32,965 nt of DNA, taken from the IMG/VR virus record IMGVR_UViG_3300029171_000031, positions 1 through 32,965 of that record, one strand, 5' to 3'. Within the stretch, counting starts at the first letter, position 1. The number at the start of each line of letters is the position of its first letter. Shown one piece after another: positions 311 through 23,438 of the stretch. The notes under the pieces are model-generated. The model was not told where the DNA came from. It saw nothing but the letters and a program-made list of their open reading frames with translations, and did no database searches. The DNA comes from a virus (taxonomy: Duplodnaviria; Caudoviricetes). The position numbers and the translations under genes were made by a program.

Positions 311-514
311 TCACCGACGCGACCGTGCGCGGGACATTGCAGCGTTGTGATCGTTCGTTCGCTTCTTCTCCAGGTTGGTCTTCTCTAGGGCTAGCCGGTG
401 TCGGCGGGTCACCGGGATACTCATGATGCTTTCGTAGGTCTGCCCATTCCAGACCTCCATGAGGTAGAAGATCTCCTTCTCTAGGGAGGCTACTTCGCCG
501 AAGGGAAGAAAAAA
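311..514 (-). CDS. -1 frameshift extension of the tail assembly chaperone (gpGT-like / T4-type gp51-like segment)
   Basis: Frame LPFGEVASLEKEIFYLMEVWNGQTYESIMSIPVTRR... overlaps the end of 490..1269 in the -1 frame at T TTT TTC; predicted fusion about 319 aa. Confidence 0.75.
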   Translation of the reverse strand, partial: FFLPFGEVASLEKEIFYLMEVWNGQTYESIMSIPVTRRHRLALEKTNLEKKRTNDHNAAMSRARSRR

Positions 515-1269
515 CCTTGGGCCCCGATGTTCAGGTCCTTCGACCACTCGTTGCCGCAGCTCGCGCAGGTGAAGTTTACGGATGTCTCCACCCCACCCTC
601 AACTCGGGCGAACTCTGCGCGGAGGAAGTGGCGGTCCTTCATGCCCAGGCGCTTGATTGCCTCAAGCGTAGGGGGCTCGTCCCCGAGCAGCTCGATGCGC
701 ATCAGGAGGGCCTGAGACATAGCGTCTAGCGGGGTGCGCTTGATCTGCTTTCCGATGCGAGCTTCGTCCAAGCCTGTCGAGATCCGGAAGCGAGCCCGAA
801 GCCCTGAGGGCAAGACGGTGTCGTAGACACGCTTCGCAGGCTCGGGCATCTCCTTCACCTCTAGCTCCGTGCCGATGTCCACCATGAAGAGCCCCTTGAC
901 CTTGCACTTCGGGCACTCCTCACGCACGGGCAGCTCATCCCCGAGCGTCACGCGACGGATGGCAAACAGAAGAAACACACGGTCCCCGACCGGCAGGTTC
1001 TTCACGATCTGCGAGATCCTGCCCGGGGTGTCGTACTTCCCGATACGGGTCACGCAAGCCGCCAGCAGGTTGTCCATCTTCTCGTGCCCGGGGACTACCT
1101 GCGAAGCAAGCATGTCCTCCTCGAACCCGGAGATTTCTCGGACGACCACGTCCCGCACAACAACCTGGTCCCCCTCGTCCCAGTGCCCGCAAGGCAGCTC
1201 GAACGTCCCCACAGAGGCGTGAGGTGTCTCCATTTGATTGATTGTGACTGTAGTCTCGATGCCACTCAT
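490..1269 (-). CDS. Tail/baseplate hub assembly chaperone (T4 gp26-like, two CxxC pairs)
   Basis: FELP..., VREISGFEEDML, GDRVFLLFAIRRVTLG, CPKC and CASC, ending GFFFPS; lies between tube genes and tape measure. Confidence 0.75.
   Translation of the reverse strand: MSGIETTVTINQMETPHASVGTFELPCGHWDEGDQVVVRDVVVREISGFEEDMLASQVVPGHEKMDNLLAACVTRIGKYDTPGRISQIVKNLPVGDRVFLLFAIRRVTLGDELPVREECPKCKVKGLFMVDIGTELEVKEMPEPAKRVYDTVLPSGLRARFRISTGLDEARIGKQIKRTPLDAMSQALLMRIELLGDEPPTLEAIKRLGMKDRHFLRAEFARVEGGVETSVNFTCASCGNEWSKDLNIGAQGFFFPSAK
508..514 (-). promoter_or_regulatory. -1 ribosomal slippery heptamer T TTT TTC
   Basis: GGT TTT TTC in the chaperone frame fits X XXY YYZ, and the -1 frame is open for 65 further codons. 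Confidence 0.75.
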
Positions 1270-16254: not shown

Positions 16255-16288
16255 AAATGGAAAAAGGCCCCACCGAAGTGGAGCCTTT
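16255..16288 (-). terminator. Rho-independent terminator after the major capsid gene
   Basis: AGGCTCCAC-TTCG-GTGGGGCCT followed by TTTTCCATTTT. Confidence 0.85.
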
Positions 16289-16323
16289 CGCCGTCATACC
16301 AGGAAGCCAGTAGTTACAAGGGC

Positions 16324-17814
16324 TTACAGGTTCTGGATCGTCATCTGACCGTAGAAGTCAGGACGAAGCAGCTTCTTCGCGTAGCGGGTACGGAGACCCT
16401 TGCGGAAGGAGAAGTCGCTCGGGTCGAGGAAGGTCGGGGTGACCTGGAGCGGCACGTACGGGGCCCAGACGTAGCCGGACTCCAAGAAGCTTCCGCCCTT
16501 GAGACCGATCATCATCTTGTCGCGCGTGAAGAACGGATCCTCATAGACGGTCCACTTGTTCATCAGCGTACCAGCCTTGTAGATCGAGAACGATCCATGG
16601 CCACCACGCGGACGCATCATGTCCATCTGCCCGTTCGGGTTCATGTCGGGCGACCAGATCGGCTTGAAGTCGCCGTGCGTGGTCAGCTGCGTCAACAGCG
16701 CCGACACCTCGGGGCTCGTCACAATCCAGTTCGCAGGCGCGCGGAGCGTCTTCTTGTGGATGAGGTTCGAGACCGTGCTGATCTGCGTCAGCATCGAGCG
16801 AAGGTGATCCAGCTCCGAGATTCCGCCCGGGGGGATACGGTCGAACGTAGCCGTCGTGTTCAACGAGTTCAGGAACAGGTCGTTGATGACCTCTCGGTCG
16901 ATCTCCAACGCGATCTCCTGAGCGATGATCGACACGATCTCCGTCTCAGCGTCCAGACCGTGGAAGGCCCGAAGGTCCTCAGCAGCTTCCGAAGACCACA
17001 GGGCCTTCAGACGACGAGGCATCGCCTCTACGGGGCTCTTCTTCACATCCAGACGTACCTCAGGCACGTTGGTGTTCAGCTCGCCGTCGTAGAAGTAGAA
17101 CGCCTTGATCTGGTTACCGTTCGCCGCCGCGTTCGTGAACAAGAAGCTCGCGACCGCACCGTTCGAGTAGTTGATCGTACCCGCCGAAACGTCACCCGTG
17201 AAACCACCGGTACCGTTGTCGGTAGCCTCCTGGACCGTCGCACCCGTCGTAGCGTTGATCTCGCGGATGATCACCGAGAATCCACGACCGGAGTCGAGAG
17301 GACGCACGGGAGTCCACGCCAGCACCGCCGAGAGGGCCGTACCAACACCACCGAAGGCAGCGCCGTTACCGGTGGCCAGAGGCTCACCGTTCACAAACTC
17401 GCTGCTGTAGTCGCGGTCGAAGTCGCGCGGGAACACGTTCCCAGCGGTCGTACCACCCTTCGTCGATCCGTAGACGTAATCGAGGAAGAACACAGCACCG
17501 ATTGGAGCCGTCATCGGCTGAACCGACACCAACTCGTTTGCGATCAGGTTCGGGAACACCCTCCGGAGAACCGGGAAGATGAACTTCGTGAACGAACCCA
17601 CGTTGACACTCCGCGTCTCCTCGTTGAGGGACTGGAGCCACATGGACTCATTCTCCATGAGCATCGCGGTACAACCGAGCACGTAGCGCTCATGCTCCGT
17701 GCGGTCCGGCAGACCTTCGAGGAACTCACCCCACTTGTGGATAAGGGCCCCTACATAGCTCTGGTCGGCGATGGTACGACGACCCTCTTCTTGAAGCATC
17801 GATCGAGCTTCCAC
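16324..17814 (-). CDS. Major capsid protein (T4 gp23-like)
   Basis: KW..FLEGL, LMENE, PVLRRVFPNLIANELVSVQPM, RRLKALWS.EAAEDL.A.HGLDAE.E, EIALEIDREVI, YVWAPYVPL, KGLRTRYA; AGGAGG RBS. Confidence 0.97.
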   Translation of the reverse strand: MEARSMLQEEGRRTIADQSYVGALIHKWGEFLEGLPDRTEHERYVLGCTAMLMENESMWLQSLNEETRSVNVGSFTKFIFPVLRRVFPNLIANELVSVQPMTAPIGAVFFLDYVYGSTKGGTTAGNVFPRDFDRDYSSEFVNGEPLATGNGAAFGGVGTALSAVLAWTPVRPLDSGRGFSVIIREINATTGATVQEATDNGTGGFTGDVSAGTINYSNGAVASFLFTNAAANGNQIKAFYFYDGELNTNVPEVRLDVKKSPVEAMPRRLKALWSSEAAEDLRAFHGLDAETEIVSIIAQEIALEIDREVINDLFLNSLNTTATFDRIPPGGISELDHLRSMLTQISTVSNLIHKKTLRAPANWIVTSPEVSALLTQLTTHGDFKPIWSPDMNPNGQMDMMRPRGGHGSFSIYKAGTLMNKWTVYEDPFFTRDKMMIGLKGGSFLESGYVWAPYVPLQVTPTFLDPSDFSFRKGLRTRYAKKLLRPDFYGQMTIQNL

Positions 17815-17865: not shown

Positions 17866-19545
17866 TTAGTTACGGTTGATTCCGCTCAGCTGCCTGAACT
17901 CAGACACAGATTGTCCGAGTACAGGGTAGTCTCTATTAGTCGAGCCACCATGACCGCGACTAGCATCCTCTTGGATCGGGCTGTGCTCACGACCACCTCG
18001 GGTCAGTGTACGCACCCGCTGCCGAACGGACTCCATGCTGTCCGCATCCATGGCAGGCTCACGGAAGCCCTCCAACACAGCATCGATCTGCTCTGTGGAC
18101 TTGTATCCGGAGTTTTCCAGCATCTTCTTGATCTTAGCGGCCTGCGAATGGTTTGTCAGGCGATCTGCCGCGTACAAACGCAATCCGAGGTCCTTGTTCA
18201 ACAGTAGAGCGTTCTCCAGGCCCTCTGTCAGCTTCTGGACCCGCTCAGTCGAACGTCCGCGAGTCTCTAGGGACTCGGTCAACGAACAACTTCCGGTCTT
18301 CTTCTTGGCCTCTTCTACCTTGGCAGTCACCTCAGACGCCGAAGCGTAAGCAGTCACGTCACCAACCAGATCACGGATCAAATCCGCCTGAGACTCTCCT
18401 ACCAGCTGACGCTCCAAGTGGTACTTGTAGCCAGCCTCCTTGGCAGCCTCGGTCAGCTGGGTAATCACAGCCCCCAGCTCAGCAGACCGCTCTTCCAACT
18501 TCTGAACCCTAGAGCGCAACTGAGCGATCTCCGCGTTCTTCTCCTCTACCACCTCGTTCACATCGTCCGGAAGGACGTAGGGACGTAGAAGAGCCTTCAC
18601 ACCTTCGAGCGCAGCCTTGGCACCCGCTACCTCAGGATCCGCCAGCATCTCAGCCCGGATCTCAGCCTCGATAGCAGCCCGAGCCTTGCCCACCGCAGAG
18701 AGAACCTCCGCAGCAATCTCCTTGCGCATCGCCTCCATGTTCGGAGCATCAGGCGAGGCATCGGGCACACCTGGTGCAGCACTGACCGGAGGACCAACCA
18801 CTACGGGAGGCACGATCACCGAAGGCGTCTCGGTTCCGTAGGCCTTGGCAAGGAACTTCGCCGCTAGCGCGGCCTCTTCGGGAGATCCGGAAGCGACGCG
18901 AGGGCCCATGGACTCCTCAAGATCTTCCTTCTTCGGATCGCCGCTGACCTCGCCAATGCCCACATCCTCAGCCATCGTCTGTGCCTCCGCAGGAAACTCA
19001 ACGCCCTCGTAGAAGACCTCCGGGTAGGCCGTGTCATCCGCAGGCTCAGCCACGAAATCGAAGGTCACCAGGCGGTAGTCCTCCTGAACCACCTCGTTGC
19101 CACTGCCATCCGGCTTCGTAGACCCGAAGCCCCGAGAGCTGACACCCACGGGCACACCGGAAGCCAGGATAGCCTTCAGGTCACGCCCGAGCGTGGTGTC
19201 CAGGATCTCGCACTCCCCAATCACACGATCCCCCTCTAGACGAAGGTCCGTGATGACGTGGGAGGCCCGCTGCAAAGCCGTCCGGCCCGACTCGGGGTGG
19301 TCTAGCTCCCCCAGAACCTTCTTCCGAGCGAGATTGCCCTGAAGACGTGCGATGTTGGACTCCCAGATCTCATGCTTGTACCAACGTCCGTTGGCCGTTG
19401 GCTTACCCGCATGACCGAACTCACCACGCGCGAACACTCGGCCCGGAGCCGCTTCCTTGTTCTCGATCAGAGTCAGCTTCGCATCGTGAAGCTGCTCATC
19501 AATCAGCGTGTTGGTAGGCTTCTTCGGGGCTTCCAGAATAGGCAT
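17866..19545 (-). CDS. Prohead protease (T4 gp21-like) fused to a scaffold-like coiled-coil region
   Basis: NGRWY, GELDHP (His), GVSSRG.GS (Ser), TFDFVAEP; C-terminal about 370 aa Pro-rich linker and coiled coil. Confidence 0.92.
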   Translation of the reverse strand: MPILEAPKKPTNTLIDEQLHDAKLTLIENKEAAPGRVFARGEFGHAGKPTANGRWYKHEIWESNIARLQGNLARKKVLGELDHPESGRTALQRASHVITDLRLEGDRVIGECEILDTTLGRDLKAILASGVPVGVSSRGFGSTKPDGSGNEVVQEDYRLVTFDFVAEPADDTAYPEVFYEGVEFPAEAQTMAEDVGIGEVSGDPKKEDLEESMGPRVASGSPEEAALAAKFLAKAYGTETPSVIVPPVVVGPPVSAAPGVPDASPDAPNMEAMRKEIAAEVLSAVGKARAAIEAEIRAEMLADPEVAGAKAALEGVKALLRPYVLPDDVNEVVEEKNAEIAQLRSRVQKLEERSAELGAVITQLTEAAKEAGYKYHLERQLVGESQADLIRDLVGDVTAYASASEVTAKVEEAKKKTGSCSLTESLETRGRSTERVQKLTEGLENALLLNKDLGLRLYAADRLTNHSQAAKIKKMLENSGYKSTEQIDAVLEGFREPAMDADSMESVRQRVRTLTRGGREHSPIQEDASRGHGGSTNRDYPVLGQSVSEFRQLSGINRN

Positions 19546-19787
19546 CAGTGCTGCCTCCAGCGAAAGTTGGACTTGAAGGGGGTGAAAGCAATCGAAGAGC
19601 CGATACCGCCCAGCTTCGGGCGATCGAACGCAGGAGAGCCAGCACCCACCTTACGGGTCTTGCGTCTCACTGGGCTTTTCTCGGCTCCAATCACTTCTTT
19701 CCTTCCAGAGGAGTACGACGTACGTCGGTTTCGCCATGAGCCCTTGTCATTAGGGCTCTTCGGGGCGACCGACTTCAGGCGTTTCCC
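19545..19787 (-). CDS. -1 frameshift extension (78 aa, basic) of the acidic head-module protein
   Basis: Frame has no ATG, opens exactly at G GGA AAC (in-frame TGA immediately before) and ends in a TGATG overlap with the protease start. Confidence 0.75.
   Translation of the reverse strand, partial: GKRLKSVAPKSPNDKGSWRNRRTSYSSGRKEVIGAEKSPVRRKTRKVGAGSPAFDRPKLGGIGSSIAFTPFKSNFRWRQH
19724..19787 (-). promoter_or_regulatory. -1 frameshift signal: G GGA AAC, 7-nt spacer, three-stem hairpin
   Basis: Heptamer 19781..19787; hairpin GTCGGT/ACCGAC, CGCC/GGCG, GAGCCCT/AGGGCTC at 19724..19773. Confidence 0.8.
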
Positions 19788-20614
19788 TCAGCGAGCTTCA
19801 TGTAGATCTCTAGACCGCTCATCAACGTGTCGATAGCCTCCTTGAAGGTCGTACCAACCTCATCGAAATCGATGGTGTCCTCGTCCTCGGTCTCCAGGAA
19901 CTGAGACACCCCAGCCGTAAACTCGCTCATCGCGGCGAAGTTCTCGGCCATCTCCTTGTACGCCTTGCCGGACTGCCGACCGAAGAAGGCCGAGAGGCCC
20001 TGAGCGGTCTCCGCAATCCCAGCGAACGCCGGGCTGATACCTGCGGAGGTCTTGGTCGAGTCCTCAGTGAGCGACTCCACGATGGACTCGATCTGGGCTA
20101 CCGACTGCTGAAGAGCGGACTCCTCGTAGTCGTCGTCCTCGTCGTCGTCCTCGTCGTCGTCCTCGTCGTCATCCTCCGAGTCATCCTCGTCGTCGTCCTC
20201 ATCATCGTCCTCGTCGTCCCCCTCTTCGAGGTCCGCCGCCATCTCGACGGTCTCGCCGAGCTTTTCGAGACGACTCATCTCGTCCTCATCGAGGTCGAGA
20301 TCCCCCGACCCGATGGACTCCCAGTCCCGATCGAAGGCCTCGGAGAACGCGCGCTCTTCCGCCAGAGACTCTGCGTAATCCAAAGAAGAGTCCTTCCGGG
20401 CAGGAGCCTGCGGATTCAGGTTGTCCCCGCCAACCTTGTACTTCCCCGTCATGTCCTTGGGGGACCCAGGCTTGCGGGTGTGCGAACCAGGTTCGCCGCT
20501 TCCGACAGGGCCACCCGGAGAGGTGGGAAGAGACTCCGTCTTCGCAAGAAGACCGATGTTCTCGAAGTCTTCCTGAAGAGTGGTGAGCACGATGCGGTGG
20601 TGACCTAGAGCCAT
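19775..20614 (-). CDS. Highly acidic head-core / scaffold-like protein
   Basis: AGGAGG RBS; poly-(EDDD) tract; between portal and protease like T4 prohead core genes. Confidence 0.75.
   Translation of the reverse strand: MALGHHRIVLTTLQEDFENIGLLAKTESLPTSPGGPVGSGEPGSHTRKPGSPKDMTGKYKVGGDNLNPQAPARKDSSLDYAESLAEERAFSEAFDRDWESIGSGDLDLDEDEMSRLEKLGETVEMAADLEEGDDEDDDEDDDEDDSEDDDEDDDEDDDEDDDYEESALQQSVAQIESIVESLTEDSTKTSAGISPAFAGIAETAQGLSAFFGRQSGKAYKEMAENFAAMSEFTAGVSQFLETEDEDTIDFDEVGTTFKEAIDTLMSGLEIYMKLAEGNA
20129..20219 (-). repeat. Imperfect 12-bp coding tandem repeat (GAGGACGACGAC, EDDD)
   Basis: Directly visible; encodes about 30 consecutive D/E residues with one Ser. Confidence 0.85.
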
Positions 20615-20673
20615 TGGTTCCTCCTAGTAGCCAGTAGCCAGGCTAGTGGCCTGAGCATGAGTGGTGTAAGACT

Positions 20674-21585
20674 TCATTGCGAGATCGACTCGTTCAGCTG
20701 ACCTGCAACGGCCACAACAAATCGGCTAGCGATGTCGTAATCGTAGACCGATTCTGCAAGAACGTCACGAAGTTTGCCAAGAGCACGTACCCCCTCCAGC
20801 GTTGGAAGGGTACGTTCGATAGCGTTGAGCAGCTCTTTTAGGTCCTGAAATAGGCTAGTTGAGAAGGTCTCAAACACCGCTACAACTGGACTTGAGCCCT
20901 TGGTGGTTTCCACCACCTCGCGCACAGAAGTGTACGCGGATACCGCAGACTCAGTGATGCCTCGCAGACGGGATAGAACTGCGGACACGTCTTCACGAAC
21001 CACCTGAGCGTATCCTCGACACTGAGCCTCTGACAGAGTGCCCGAGTAGAGGTGCGCGTACTTGGGCGCACTCCGAGTGGCCTCCCATTCGACACCCTCT
21101 CCCAGGAACTTCGATAGGGCGCCACCCTGGTTCGGGAGGGTCTTCCAGGTACCGCTGTGAATCCGACTCTGCACAGCCTCAACCAACTTGAGCTGGTCAC
21201 GGAGTTTGTCAGCAGTCACCAGAGGAACCAAGGAAGCGAGGGCCTTTGATACGGAGGCCCCCTCTAGGAACTGTGTTGCGACCTCATCGGCACAGCGCTC
21301 GATGTACTGGGTCGGACTCAGAGCCTCAACCTCAAGAACGTCTGCGGACACCACTCGGATGTCGCCCGCGTCGGACTCCAGGAAATCCGCTCGATGGCAG
21401 AGACCCGTAGCCATGACTACGCAGTGGGTTGGGTGCGTAGCAACCACTTGAATCGAGGTACCCAGGGTACTCCGGAAGTAGCTCTCAACGGCCTCATGGA
21501 TCTTCTTCATGCGTGACTCGTAGGAGCCGGTCTGAAGTCGGATCTGCTCAGTCAGCGGAATGAGTTTTTTGACTGCCGTTGCCAT
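20674..21585 (-). CDS. Hypothetical head-module protein, 303 aa
   Basis: Long ORF between portal and core gene; several L-x-E motifs. Confidence 0.75.
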   Translation of the reverse strand: MATAVKKLIPLTEQIRLQTGSYESRMKKIHEAVESYFRSTLGTSIQVVATHPTHCVVMATGLCHRADFLESDAGDIRVVSADVLEVEALSPTQYIERCADEVATQFLEGASVSKALASLVPLVTADKLRDQLKLVEAVQSRIHSGTWKTLPNQGGALSKFLGEGVEWEATRSAPKYAHLYSGTLSEAQCRGYAQVVREDVSAVLSRLRGITESAVSAYTSVREVVETTKGSSPVVAVFETFSTSLFQDLKELLNAIERTLPTLEGVRALGKLRDVLAESVYDYDIASRFVVAVAGQLNESISQ

Positions 21586-21626: not shown

Positions 21627-23438
21627 TCAACGATGACGACTGCTGGCTCTTTGAGCGTGGAGCACGTCTTGAAGAAGACCACCCACCTCACGTAGACGCT
21701 GGCTGTTCTGACCCTCCATCTTGAGGATCTGCTCCAGCTTCGCCTCAGCCCGCTTCTCTGACTCCCGGTTCCCTCGAAGCAGCTCTTCCTCTGTAATACG
21801 TGTTCGTACCGGACCAGCGGCTTGACGTAGACGGCGTTCCAGCAGCTTCAATCCAGAGGCCATCCCTGCGGAACTCTCTGCGGCCCCTGCGGAGGCAGGT
21901 GGTTCAAACTCGCGAGTGACTTCTGCCGCTGCTCGGGCGCTCATCTTCTCGACCGCTGCCTGAGCCATACCTTCGCGCTCCACGTCCGCAGCACGTTCCT
22001 TGAGTATCAGCTCAATGTCCGTGTCTGTGATCTGGTACACGTTGTTCAACACCCAGCGCAGAGACACGTGCTCCCGCATGCGCGTTGCCAAATCGGCCCG
22101 AGCGTTCCTGACCTCCAGCTGCGCCAGCTCGAAGATGGCGCTAGGCACAGTCATGTGGATGTCGTACTCGACGGCGTACGGGTCGATATTCAGAGCTGCG
22201 AGGTGTGTTCGCGCGATCTTACCTAGGCCGTTTCGCACCTCCCGCTGGACTCGCAACACGCTCCGAGCGAAGCGAACATCCTCACTAGACAAGACGGCTC
22301 GGGATGAGGACTCATCCTGAGCTAGGTACGCCTTGGGGACCTTGAGCCCCGCGAACATCTTGTTCTGAAAGTAGGCCACATCGTCCATGTGCTGCCAGGA
22401 CGGGCCACCGAGGGTCTCGATGCGTGTGCTGTCAGTACCCTTTCGACTGGGCACCCAGAAATCGTCATCAGGACTCAGGGTTTCGTACTTGAGATCGAGT
22501 TTCCCAGTCGCAGGGTTCACGAAGCGCTTCTTCTTGTGCTGCTGGCGCATCTTGTTCATGAACCCGAGCGCTTCAGCCGGGGGCATGTCGCCCACATCCA
22601 CGTAGAAGGCGAACCGCTCAGGGGCGCGCTGGAGACGGTAGATCATGGCCGCGTCCTCCAACAGGAGGAGCCGCTTCCAGATCCATCGCACAGGCTCCAA
22701 GACGCTGTATCCATAGACACTGCGACGGTGCTTCCCGCGCAGGCGGAAGTGCGCCACTTCCCAGGGCTCTAAGGCGGAGACGTGCTGAAGCAGGTTCCCG
22801 CCCGAGTTTGTGGTTCCCCCGGGCTGGTTGACCCCTCGAATAGCGTCGGTGCGCTGAGCCAGGATCTTCTGGAACTCCTGCGGGCTGTATCCGAAGCGCC
22901 CCTTGAAGTCCTGCACAAACCCATACAGCTCGCCCCTCGGGCCCTCGACTCGCCGGATGGTGGGTGCCGGCAGGAAGTTCAGACCAACGACTCCGTTCTC
23001 GTTGACCAGCATCTCCTCGAAGTTGTTCCCGTACTTCACAAGGGACCGAGTGATCTCCCAGATCTCCTCGTCCATACGCAACCGCTTGTGGAATAGGTCG
23101 TCAAGGATCCCCTGGAGAGTCTTGTCAGGACTCGTCACCCACACCGTCCTACCGATCTGGGTGTCGGGCTGGGAGGCGTCGTCTGCGTAGATGTCCACTG
23201 CCGCCGAAATCTCGGGGTAGTCGTCCATCTCTTCGTAGTCCACGTACCGACTGATGAGGTCGTGCTCCAGACGCAGGTAATCCGACAGAGCATCATAGCC
23301 ATAGGCCTGAAGGAGGTCGTACCCAGAGTCCGGGTAGGTGGGTGCTGTAGAGCCCTTGGCGAGCAAGGCAGCTCCGCGCTCCTTGTCCACCACGAAGGAC
23401 TGGCGCAGCCGATCAACTACGTTCTGAATAGCTCCCAC
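21627..23438 (-). CDS. Portal protein (T4 gp20-like)
   Basis: YEEMDDYPEISAAVDIYADD, WKRLLLLEDAAMIYRLQRAPER.AFYVDVG, DDFWVPSR, IETLGG, DDV.YF..K...LKVP. Confidence 0.95.
   Translation of the reverse strand: MGAIQNVVDRLRQSFVVDKERGAALLAKGSTAPTYPDSGYDLLQAYGYDALSDYLRLEHDLISRYVDYEEMDDYPEISAAVDIYADDASQPDTQIGRTVWVTSPDKTLQGILDDLFHKRLRMDEEIWEITRSLVKYGNNFEEMLVNENGVVGLNFLPAPTIRRVEGPRGELYGFVQDFKGRFGYSPQEFQKILAQRTDAIRGVNQPGGTTNSGGNLLQHVSALEPWEVAHFRLRGKHRRSVYGYSVLEPVRWIWKRLLLLEDAAMIYRLQRAPERFAFYVDVGDMPPAEALGFMNKMRQQHKKKRFVNPATGKLDLKYETLSPDDDFWVPSRKGTDSTRIETLGGPSWQHMDDVAYFQNKMFAGLKVPKAYLAQDESSSRAVLSSEDVRFARSVLRVQREVRNGLGKIARTHLAALNIDPYAVEYDIHMTVPSAIFELAQLEVRNARADLATRMREHVSLRWVLNNVYQITDTDIELILKERAADVEREGMAQAAVEKMSARAAAEVTREFEPPASAGAAESSAGMASGLKLLERRLRQAAGPVRTRITEEELLRGNRESEKRAEAKLEQILKMEGQNSQRLREVGGLLQDVLHAQRASSRHR

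Follow-up and report, generated by a model that had tools for sequence, protein, structure and literature searches.

We describe here a very likely programmed −1 ribosomal frameshift in the head module of a T4-like tailed phage (Duplodnaviria; Caudoviricetes). The DNA analyzed is a stretch of 32,965 nucleotides (nt), positions 1 to 32,965 of IMG/VR virus record IMGVR_UViG_3300029171_000031, and is referred to below as the window. The gene concerned encodes an acidic protein and lies just upstream of the prohead protease gene. As the comparison of related loci suggests, a fraction of the ribosomes ending this gene would slip back one base on the heptamer G GGA AAC, the slip would probably be helped by a stem 7 nt downstream, and the shifted ribosomes would add a conserved basic tail of 78 residues, giving forms of 279 and 356 amino acids (aa), presumably at a fixed ratio. 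The elements of the site are as follows.

20620..20625 (−), ribosome-binding site AGGAGG of the acidic gene, pairing with the anti-Shine-Dalgarno (anti-SD) sequence at −10.2 kcal/mol
19775..20614 (−), zero-frame gene of the acidic 279-aa protein, a putative prohead-core protein (open reading frame, ORF, and structure prediction)
19788..19790 (−), −1-frame TGA directly 5′ of the heptamer (sequence)
19781..19787 (−), slippery heptamer G GGA AAC (sequence and comparison among loci)
19775..19777 (−), zero-frame stop, one codon past the heptamer (sequence)
19724..19773 (−), predicted stimulatory stem-loop, 7 nt past the heptamer (folding, recoding controls and covariation)
19545..19781 (−), basic −1-frame extension of 78 codons including its TGA, with the motifs R-R-T-x-Y-S-S-G-R and P-F-x-S-x-F-R-W conserved
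19554..19558 (−), GGAGG 5′ of the protease start, inside the last Trp-Arg codons of the extension (−9.3 kcal/mol)
17866..19545 (−), gp21-type prohead protease of 559 aa with a long C-terminal scaffold-like part (PF03420, phrog_207)

The acidic ORF (20614..19775, minus strand) ends in GAG GGA AAC GCC TGA, and the heptamer stands where a preliminary description of the window had placed it. The −1 frame is closed by a TGA right before the heptamer and then runs for 78 codons without an ATG; given this TGA, entry of ribosomes into the −1 frame is confined to the acidic gene's final 13 nt and what follows. Re-counting gave the same 20 Lys or Arg and 4 Asp or Glu in the tail that had been reported, with an isoelectric point (pI) of 11.9; the short form has a pI of 4.05. 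The TGA of the extension (19547..19545) shares its A with the protease ATG, so that the extension fills the whole stretch between the two genes, which measures 229 base pairs where about 230 had been given. That the broken frame is an assembly error, or a decayed in-frame fusion (a pseudogene), we dismiss almost entirely. Contigs of two runs, which may be the source of the record, and one contig of a diverged relative from another study carry no indel at the site, the same layout recurs in 70 loci from many samples, and the −1 frame is under purifying selection. Also, a profile search of 1.84 billion proteins with the basic domain gave 52 hits, all of at most 202 aa, and no long acidic-basic fusion in frame was found among them or in longer proteins, the latter search being a weak test.

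Related loci were gathered through the protease instead of the acidic protein. With the acidic protein as query, a direct scan of viral contigs gave no match, and four related proteins were found, two of them ending in E-G-N-x. The protease yielded 161 loci, from which duplicates were removed by the 150 bases before the protease match, a step that also discarded some full-length copies in favour of cut ones; 99 loci were left, the window included. The basic frame was present in 91 of them; of the remaining eight, five break off a short way upstream and three had no call. After 13 loci without a callable acidic ORF and two with weak scores had been dropped, 76 could be scored: the basic frame lies at −1 relative to the acidic gene in 70, in frame past the stop in four and at +1 in two.

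Results showed that most of the 70 loci at −1 carry a canonical X XXY YYZ heptamer in phase near the acidic gene's end: it lies at most 6 nt from the stop in 44 of them, at most 21 nt in 52 and at most 70 nt in 57. The two other phases had a heptamer within 21 nt in 3/70 and 4/70 loci, and among 295 other long ORF ends taken from related loci, one had an in-phase heptamer within this distance. When loci were clustered by protease identity, the heptamer was found in 37/54 clusters at 90% and 10/19 at 70%. Different heptamers occupy the same place (GGGAAAC, GGGAAAA, CCCTTTC and AAAAAAG), and the several types are scattered over a quick tree, which is unrooted, so that no order of events is claimed. 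Six contigs from metagenome-assembled genomes with relatives supplied three further examples of in-phase G GGA AA. Terminal Gly-Asn or Gly-Lys is encoded as G GGA AA in 29 of 36 loci, compared with 8 of 323 such sites elsewhere, a preference that selection on the amino acids does not explain. G_GGA_AAC is a known shift site (PMC5009743), and a shift on it has been predicted for a phage tail gene (PMC3483164).

Transcriptional slippage, or another form of recoding such as readthrough or hopping, would also join the two frames, and the two loci with the tail at +1 without a start (L068 and L098), together with some loci that have no canonical site, speak for it. We consider this very improbable: the sites are 3+3 heptamers in reading phase and not long homopolymers, the phase dependence (52 loci against 3 and 4) points to the ribosome, and readthrough is excluded since the zero frame stops again before the end of the tail in 53 of 54 loci.

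The extension evolves as a coding stretch within the −1 frame. The ratio of nonsynonymous to synonymous change (pN/pS) was 0.27 in this frame; read in the other two frames, the DNA gave 1.6 and 1.9 (44 non-independent pairs) and runs into stops in 53/54 and 51/54 loci. In the diverged relative from the other study, a hand count put 7 of the 8 listed changes within the extension at third codon positions of the −1 frame. An alternative is that the basic frame is a separate small gene, started at a near-cognate CTG (C-TGA, with GAGG upstream as ribosome-binding site) or at an internal GTG. In line with that alternative, C-TGA is the commonest stop context (24/70), this phage has a GTG past the Y-S-S-G-R motif, and other lineages have stand-alone versions that begin with ATG or GTG, one of them overlapping as GTGA in frame −1, along with many short profile hits. 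We nevertheless regard a separate gene as improbable, because the starts it needs are not kept. No ATG, GTG or TTG occurs from 90 nt before the stop up to the conserved motif in 60 of the 70 loci, and stop-start overlaps are depleted, ATGA or GTGA being present at 1 of 18 TGA ends and at 32 of 90 control genes. In 36/70 loci the stop context offers GTA or CTA, which are not starts (33: GTAG 16, CTAG 8, CTAA 5, GTAA 4), or low-efficiency ATA (3 ATAA, plus 8 ATAG). GGGAAAC is replaced elsewhere by heptamers without Shine-Dalgarno (SD) character (AAAAAAC, CCCTTTC). The internal GTG, which the preliminary description had named as a way in which its proposal could fail, is matched by a start-type codon in 21 of 54 loci only, and the 14 codons 5′ of that position are under purifying selection (median pN 0.27, pS 0.85).

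Several observations weigh against a programmed −1 frameshift. Among the 70 loci at −1, 18 lack a canonical heptamer within 21 nt, and a relaxed-heptamer test in these 18 did not separate the phases (9 versus 4 and 7). Several of the 18 have a heptamer 27-78 nt upstream, and several G GGA AAA 27-63 nt upstream. An in-phase C CCU was present in nine of them, versus two and one in the other phases, and might permit a single-tRNA proline slip; C CCU recurs in phase at the acidic gene ends of L026, L033, L053, L063, L081, L114 and L152. In the four in-frame loci the basic domain lies past the stop with its own start, and in L068 (3247-3465) and L098 (1912-2337) it lies at +1 without a start codon. 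Both of these have CCC-N runs before the stop, which suggests a +1 shift, and Listeria phages are known to shift by +1 at CCC (PMC5009743). The domain, or a diverged form of it, was seen as a gene of its own in L028, L029, L107, L050, L078, L080, L157 and L161, that of L157 being the one that overlaps as GTGA in frame −1. Some stand-alone versions (L157:3228-3446, L028:3160-3396, L161, L078, L080) are preceded by short leaders with L-x-E at their end, and such leaders are common among the profile hits (33 of the 52 inspected).

All in all, the in-phase heptamer is conserved, the −1 frame is open and under purifying selection, and no start is conserved, so that the core claim of the preliminary description, a programmed −1 shift giving isoforms of 279 and 356 aa, came through all the comparative tests that it had proposed. 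We conclude that such a frameshift at the end of the acidic gene is very likely.

The hairpin of three stems described earlier 7 nt past the heptamer (19773..19724) folds at −27.1 kcal/mol with a z-score of −5.1, and 0 of 200 shuffles were as good; against synonymous recodings of the −1 frame its z-score was −2.4. When the first five bases were barred from pairing, a long stem starting 7 nt past the heptamer was found in 13 of 19 close loci. Covariation in 16 close loci gave 74% of cells paired, with 25 cells doubly changed; 0 of 500 shuffles scored as high and all slid controls paired less, although the test is biased towards this structure, for which 7 of these 16 sequences had served as the source. 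RNAalifold on all 16 found a weak consensus of seven pairs, because the registers differ; this phage itself pairs one base out of the register of the covariation structure, and its register differs from that of most close relatives, which counts against the frameshift. So does the lack of any stem conservation in 21 distant heptamer loci, where the median z-score against synonymous recodings was +0.05, compared with −1.75 in the 16 close loci. The stem is thus a feature of this subclade, and in the distant loci the adjacent stop codon may do the pausing in its place. An Rfam search gave no match. A 5′ SD-like stimulator was considered and rejected, since its apparent signal disappeared against synonymous controls, 19/37 loci lying below expectation.

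The acidic protein has a conserved N-terminal motif; structure prediction gives it an acidic middle that is disordered and, with confidence, a helical bundle at the C terminus (residues 161-278). We think it probable that it is a prohead-core component, a reading based on gene position, and that the long form, at low copy, would take the basic peptide with it into the prohead. Neither homology nor fold stands behind the core label: PHROGs and Pfam gave no family match but scattered low-complexity hits, the Atlas no usable hit, and Foldseek no match at E <= 0.001. Some acidic homologs carry an internal Lys/Arg-rich insert (P0003; L157:2152-3231), which the protein of this phage does not have.

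The basic extension is predicted not to fold alone (predicted template modelling score, pTM, 0.22). Its Y, S, G, R and W are kept in all 54 aligned copies, and the kept positions include Tyr, Gly, Phe and Trp. A tail that is unfolded alone and has conserved residues fits a peptide with a defined partner, and binding to a specific one (shell, portal or core protein) appears more likely than a mere neutralising of DNA. The domain has no PHROGs match, and no match to it was found in cultured phages. Nine L/I-x-E motifs occur in the acidic protein, one of them (L-A-E) directly before the shift site. A Glu stands just before the basic core in 35/38 distant loci and 0/16 close loci, 20 of the 35 having a hydrophobic residue two places earlier. 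The protease may release the basic tail.

The preliminary description had spoken of a T4-type prohead core gene, and this label follows from gene position and composition. In T4, acidic gp67 and basic-ended gp68 sit between the portal and the gene 21-type protease, and the stop of gene 68 overlaps the start of gene 21 by one base. Both are core proteins, cut by gp21 after L/I-x-E (PMC9026906, PMC9958956). The order of acidic and basic-ended units before a gp21-type protease, and the one-base overlap, are the same here; T4 has two ordinary genes with starts of their own, whereas the phage of the window has a predicted frameshift, an extra 303-aa gene, and protease and scaffold in one ORF. No homology to T4 gp67, gp68 or gp22 was found. 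Comparison by hhalign with gp67 and gp68 gave probabilities of 0.1, 0.4 and 19.6 (the last over one column), a weak negative given the single-sequence templates. With no homology detected, the comparison with gp67 and gp68 is an analogy.

Because the extension ends on the protease ATG, the preliminary description had proposed that the shift may tune protease translation by coupling. The family as a whole lends support to this. In 44 of 58 relatives the protease starts at −1 to +2 from the −1 stop, and the median anti-SD pairing was −5.0 kcal/mol for the protease (n=58), compared with −8.9 for the acidic gene (n=40) and −9.3 for the capsid gene (n=46), values calculated with the standard anti-SD sequence, from which that of the host may differ. 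The protease ORF is also predicted to contain a nested scaffold gene. In 46 of 54 relatives (24% expected) a 19-codon window after the protease domain contains a Met, with a median pairing of −7.8 versus −2.3 at 256 other Mets; in the window the predicted gene is as follows.

17866..18988 (−), predicted nested in-frame scaffold gene of 369 aa, GGAGG at 18988..18984 and ATG at 18975

A scaffold nested in this way would leave the protease free to be rare. In T4, 72 copies of the protease compare with 576 of gp22 (PMC9026906). In most relatives, shifted ribosomes would stop at the overlap and re-initiate at the protease ATG, so that a protease with a weak site would come mainly from them, and abundant scaffold would come from its own strong internal start, independently of the shift; we find the case for and against this evenly balanced. 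With the protease dependent on the shift and the scaffold not, the shift rate would set the protease-to-scaffold ratio. The point that tells against it is the protease site of this phage, a GGAGG 8 nt 5′ of the ATG which is strong (−9.3 kcal/mol) and, as had been foreseen, would allow independent initiation; the effect of coupling is therefore probably smaller in this phage. Some protease homologs are about 100 aa longer (the L018 protease, P0009, 667 aa).

More tentatively, and with the balance somewhat against it, the head operon as a whole could act as a stoichiometry circuit. The shift would both make a low-copy basic linker form and gate the protease by termination-reinitiation, the nested scaffold would escape this gate, and the basic peptide would be an undescribed head factor, delivered through a leader (L-x-E) or through a −1 or +1 fusion and freed by the protease.

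In its layout the predicted frameshift resembles that of lambda gpG/gpGT, a −1 shift on an X XXY YYZ site near the end of an assembly gene that yields a minor long form with a second domain at a set ratio, and G GGA AAC is itself used or predicted in some lambda-type chaperone shifts (PMC5009743, PMC3483164). Unlike lambda G/GT, which lies between the major tail protein and the tape measure, the site described here belongs to the head module, between the genes of portal and prohead protease; the part that would be added is short, basic and unfolded, and its stop overlaps the start of the next gene. As in gene 10A/10B of T7 and T3, Lactobacillus phage A2 and Listeria phages A118, A500 and PSA, a shift near the stop of a head gene would extend some of the molecules (PMC5009743, PMC3185693). 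In those phages it is the major capsid protein that becomes longer, often by an Ig-like part, whereas here an acidic, probably internal protein would gain a basic peptide. The mechanism is akin both to lambda G/GT and to the capsid extensions of T7, T3 and A2, as these sources describe them, and a member of neither group (PMC5009743, PMC3185693, PMC5221750, PMC3483164).

A search of open-licence papers, without their supplements, returned no report of this frameshift or of one in a prohead-core or scaffold gene; bioRxiv 10.1101/728261 was unrelated as far as its available text goes. The lambda C/Nu3 gene is a nested protease-scaffold gene. As there, the predicted scaffold start lies in frame within the protease gene; unlike C/Nu3, this phage has a protease of the gp21 (S77) family, whose start is linked to a stop that depends on the frameshift.

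The neighbours in the head module are a T4-like terminase, portal, S77 protease and major capsid protein, the protease scoring 56 bits against PF03420 (cut-off 27).

21627..23438 (−), T4-like portal (phrog_213)
20674..21585 (−), 303-aa gene between portal and acidic gene, kept in most loci (conservation)
16324..17814 (−), T4-like major capsid protein (phrog_138)

The 303-aa product (20674..21585) has no family match and no homology to the acidic protein. A strong terminator-like hairpin lies just 3′ of the major capsid gene (16289..16262, minus strand). In a related locus, the portal ORF (L001:7-1881) has a long intein-like stretch at its start, judged by eye. Elsewhere in the window, a 259-aa gene (1269..490) has T TTT TTC 15 nt 5′ of its stop and an open −1 frame of 65 codons (514..311, minus strand), and adjoins a downstream gene cut by the window end, maybe the tape measure; this candidate second −1 frameshift looks like a tail chaperone shift of the G/GT type.

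The localisation of core proteins in T4-type proheads has been stated to be open (PMC9958956). The frameshift described here would widen the range of programmed frameshifting, beyond tail chaperones and capsid shells, to a gene that probably belongs to the prohead core, in a deep clade of uncultured T4-like phages, and it uncovers a conserved basic domain without a match in PHROGs, the Atlas or cultured phages. The natural states of this domain (own start, GTGA overlap, three types of −1 heptamer and +1) make it possible to test how a frameshift arises from a pair of coupled genes. If the coupling is true, the frameshift would in addition set how much is made of an enzyme encoded downstream, the head protease.

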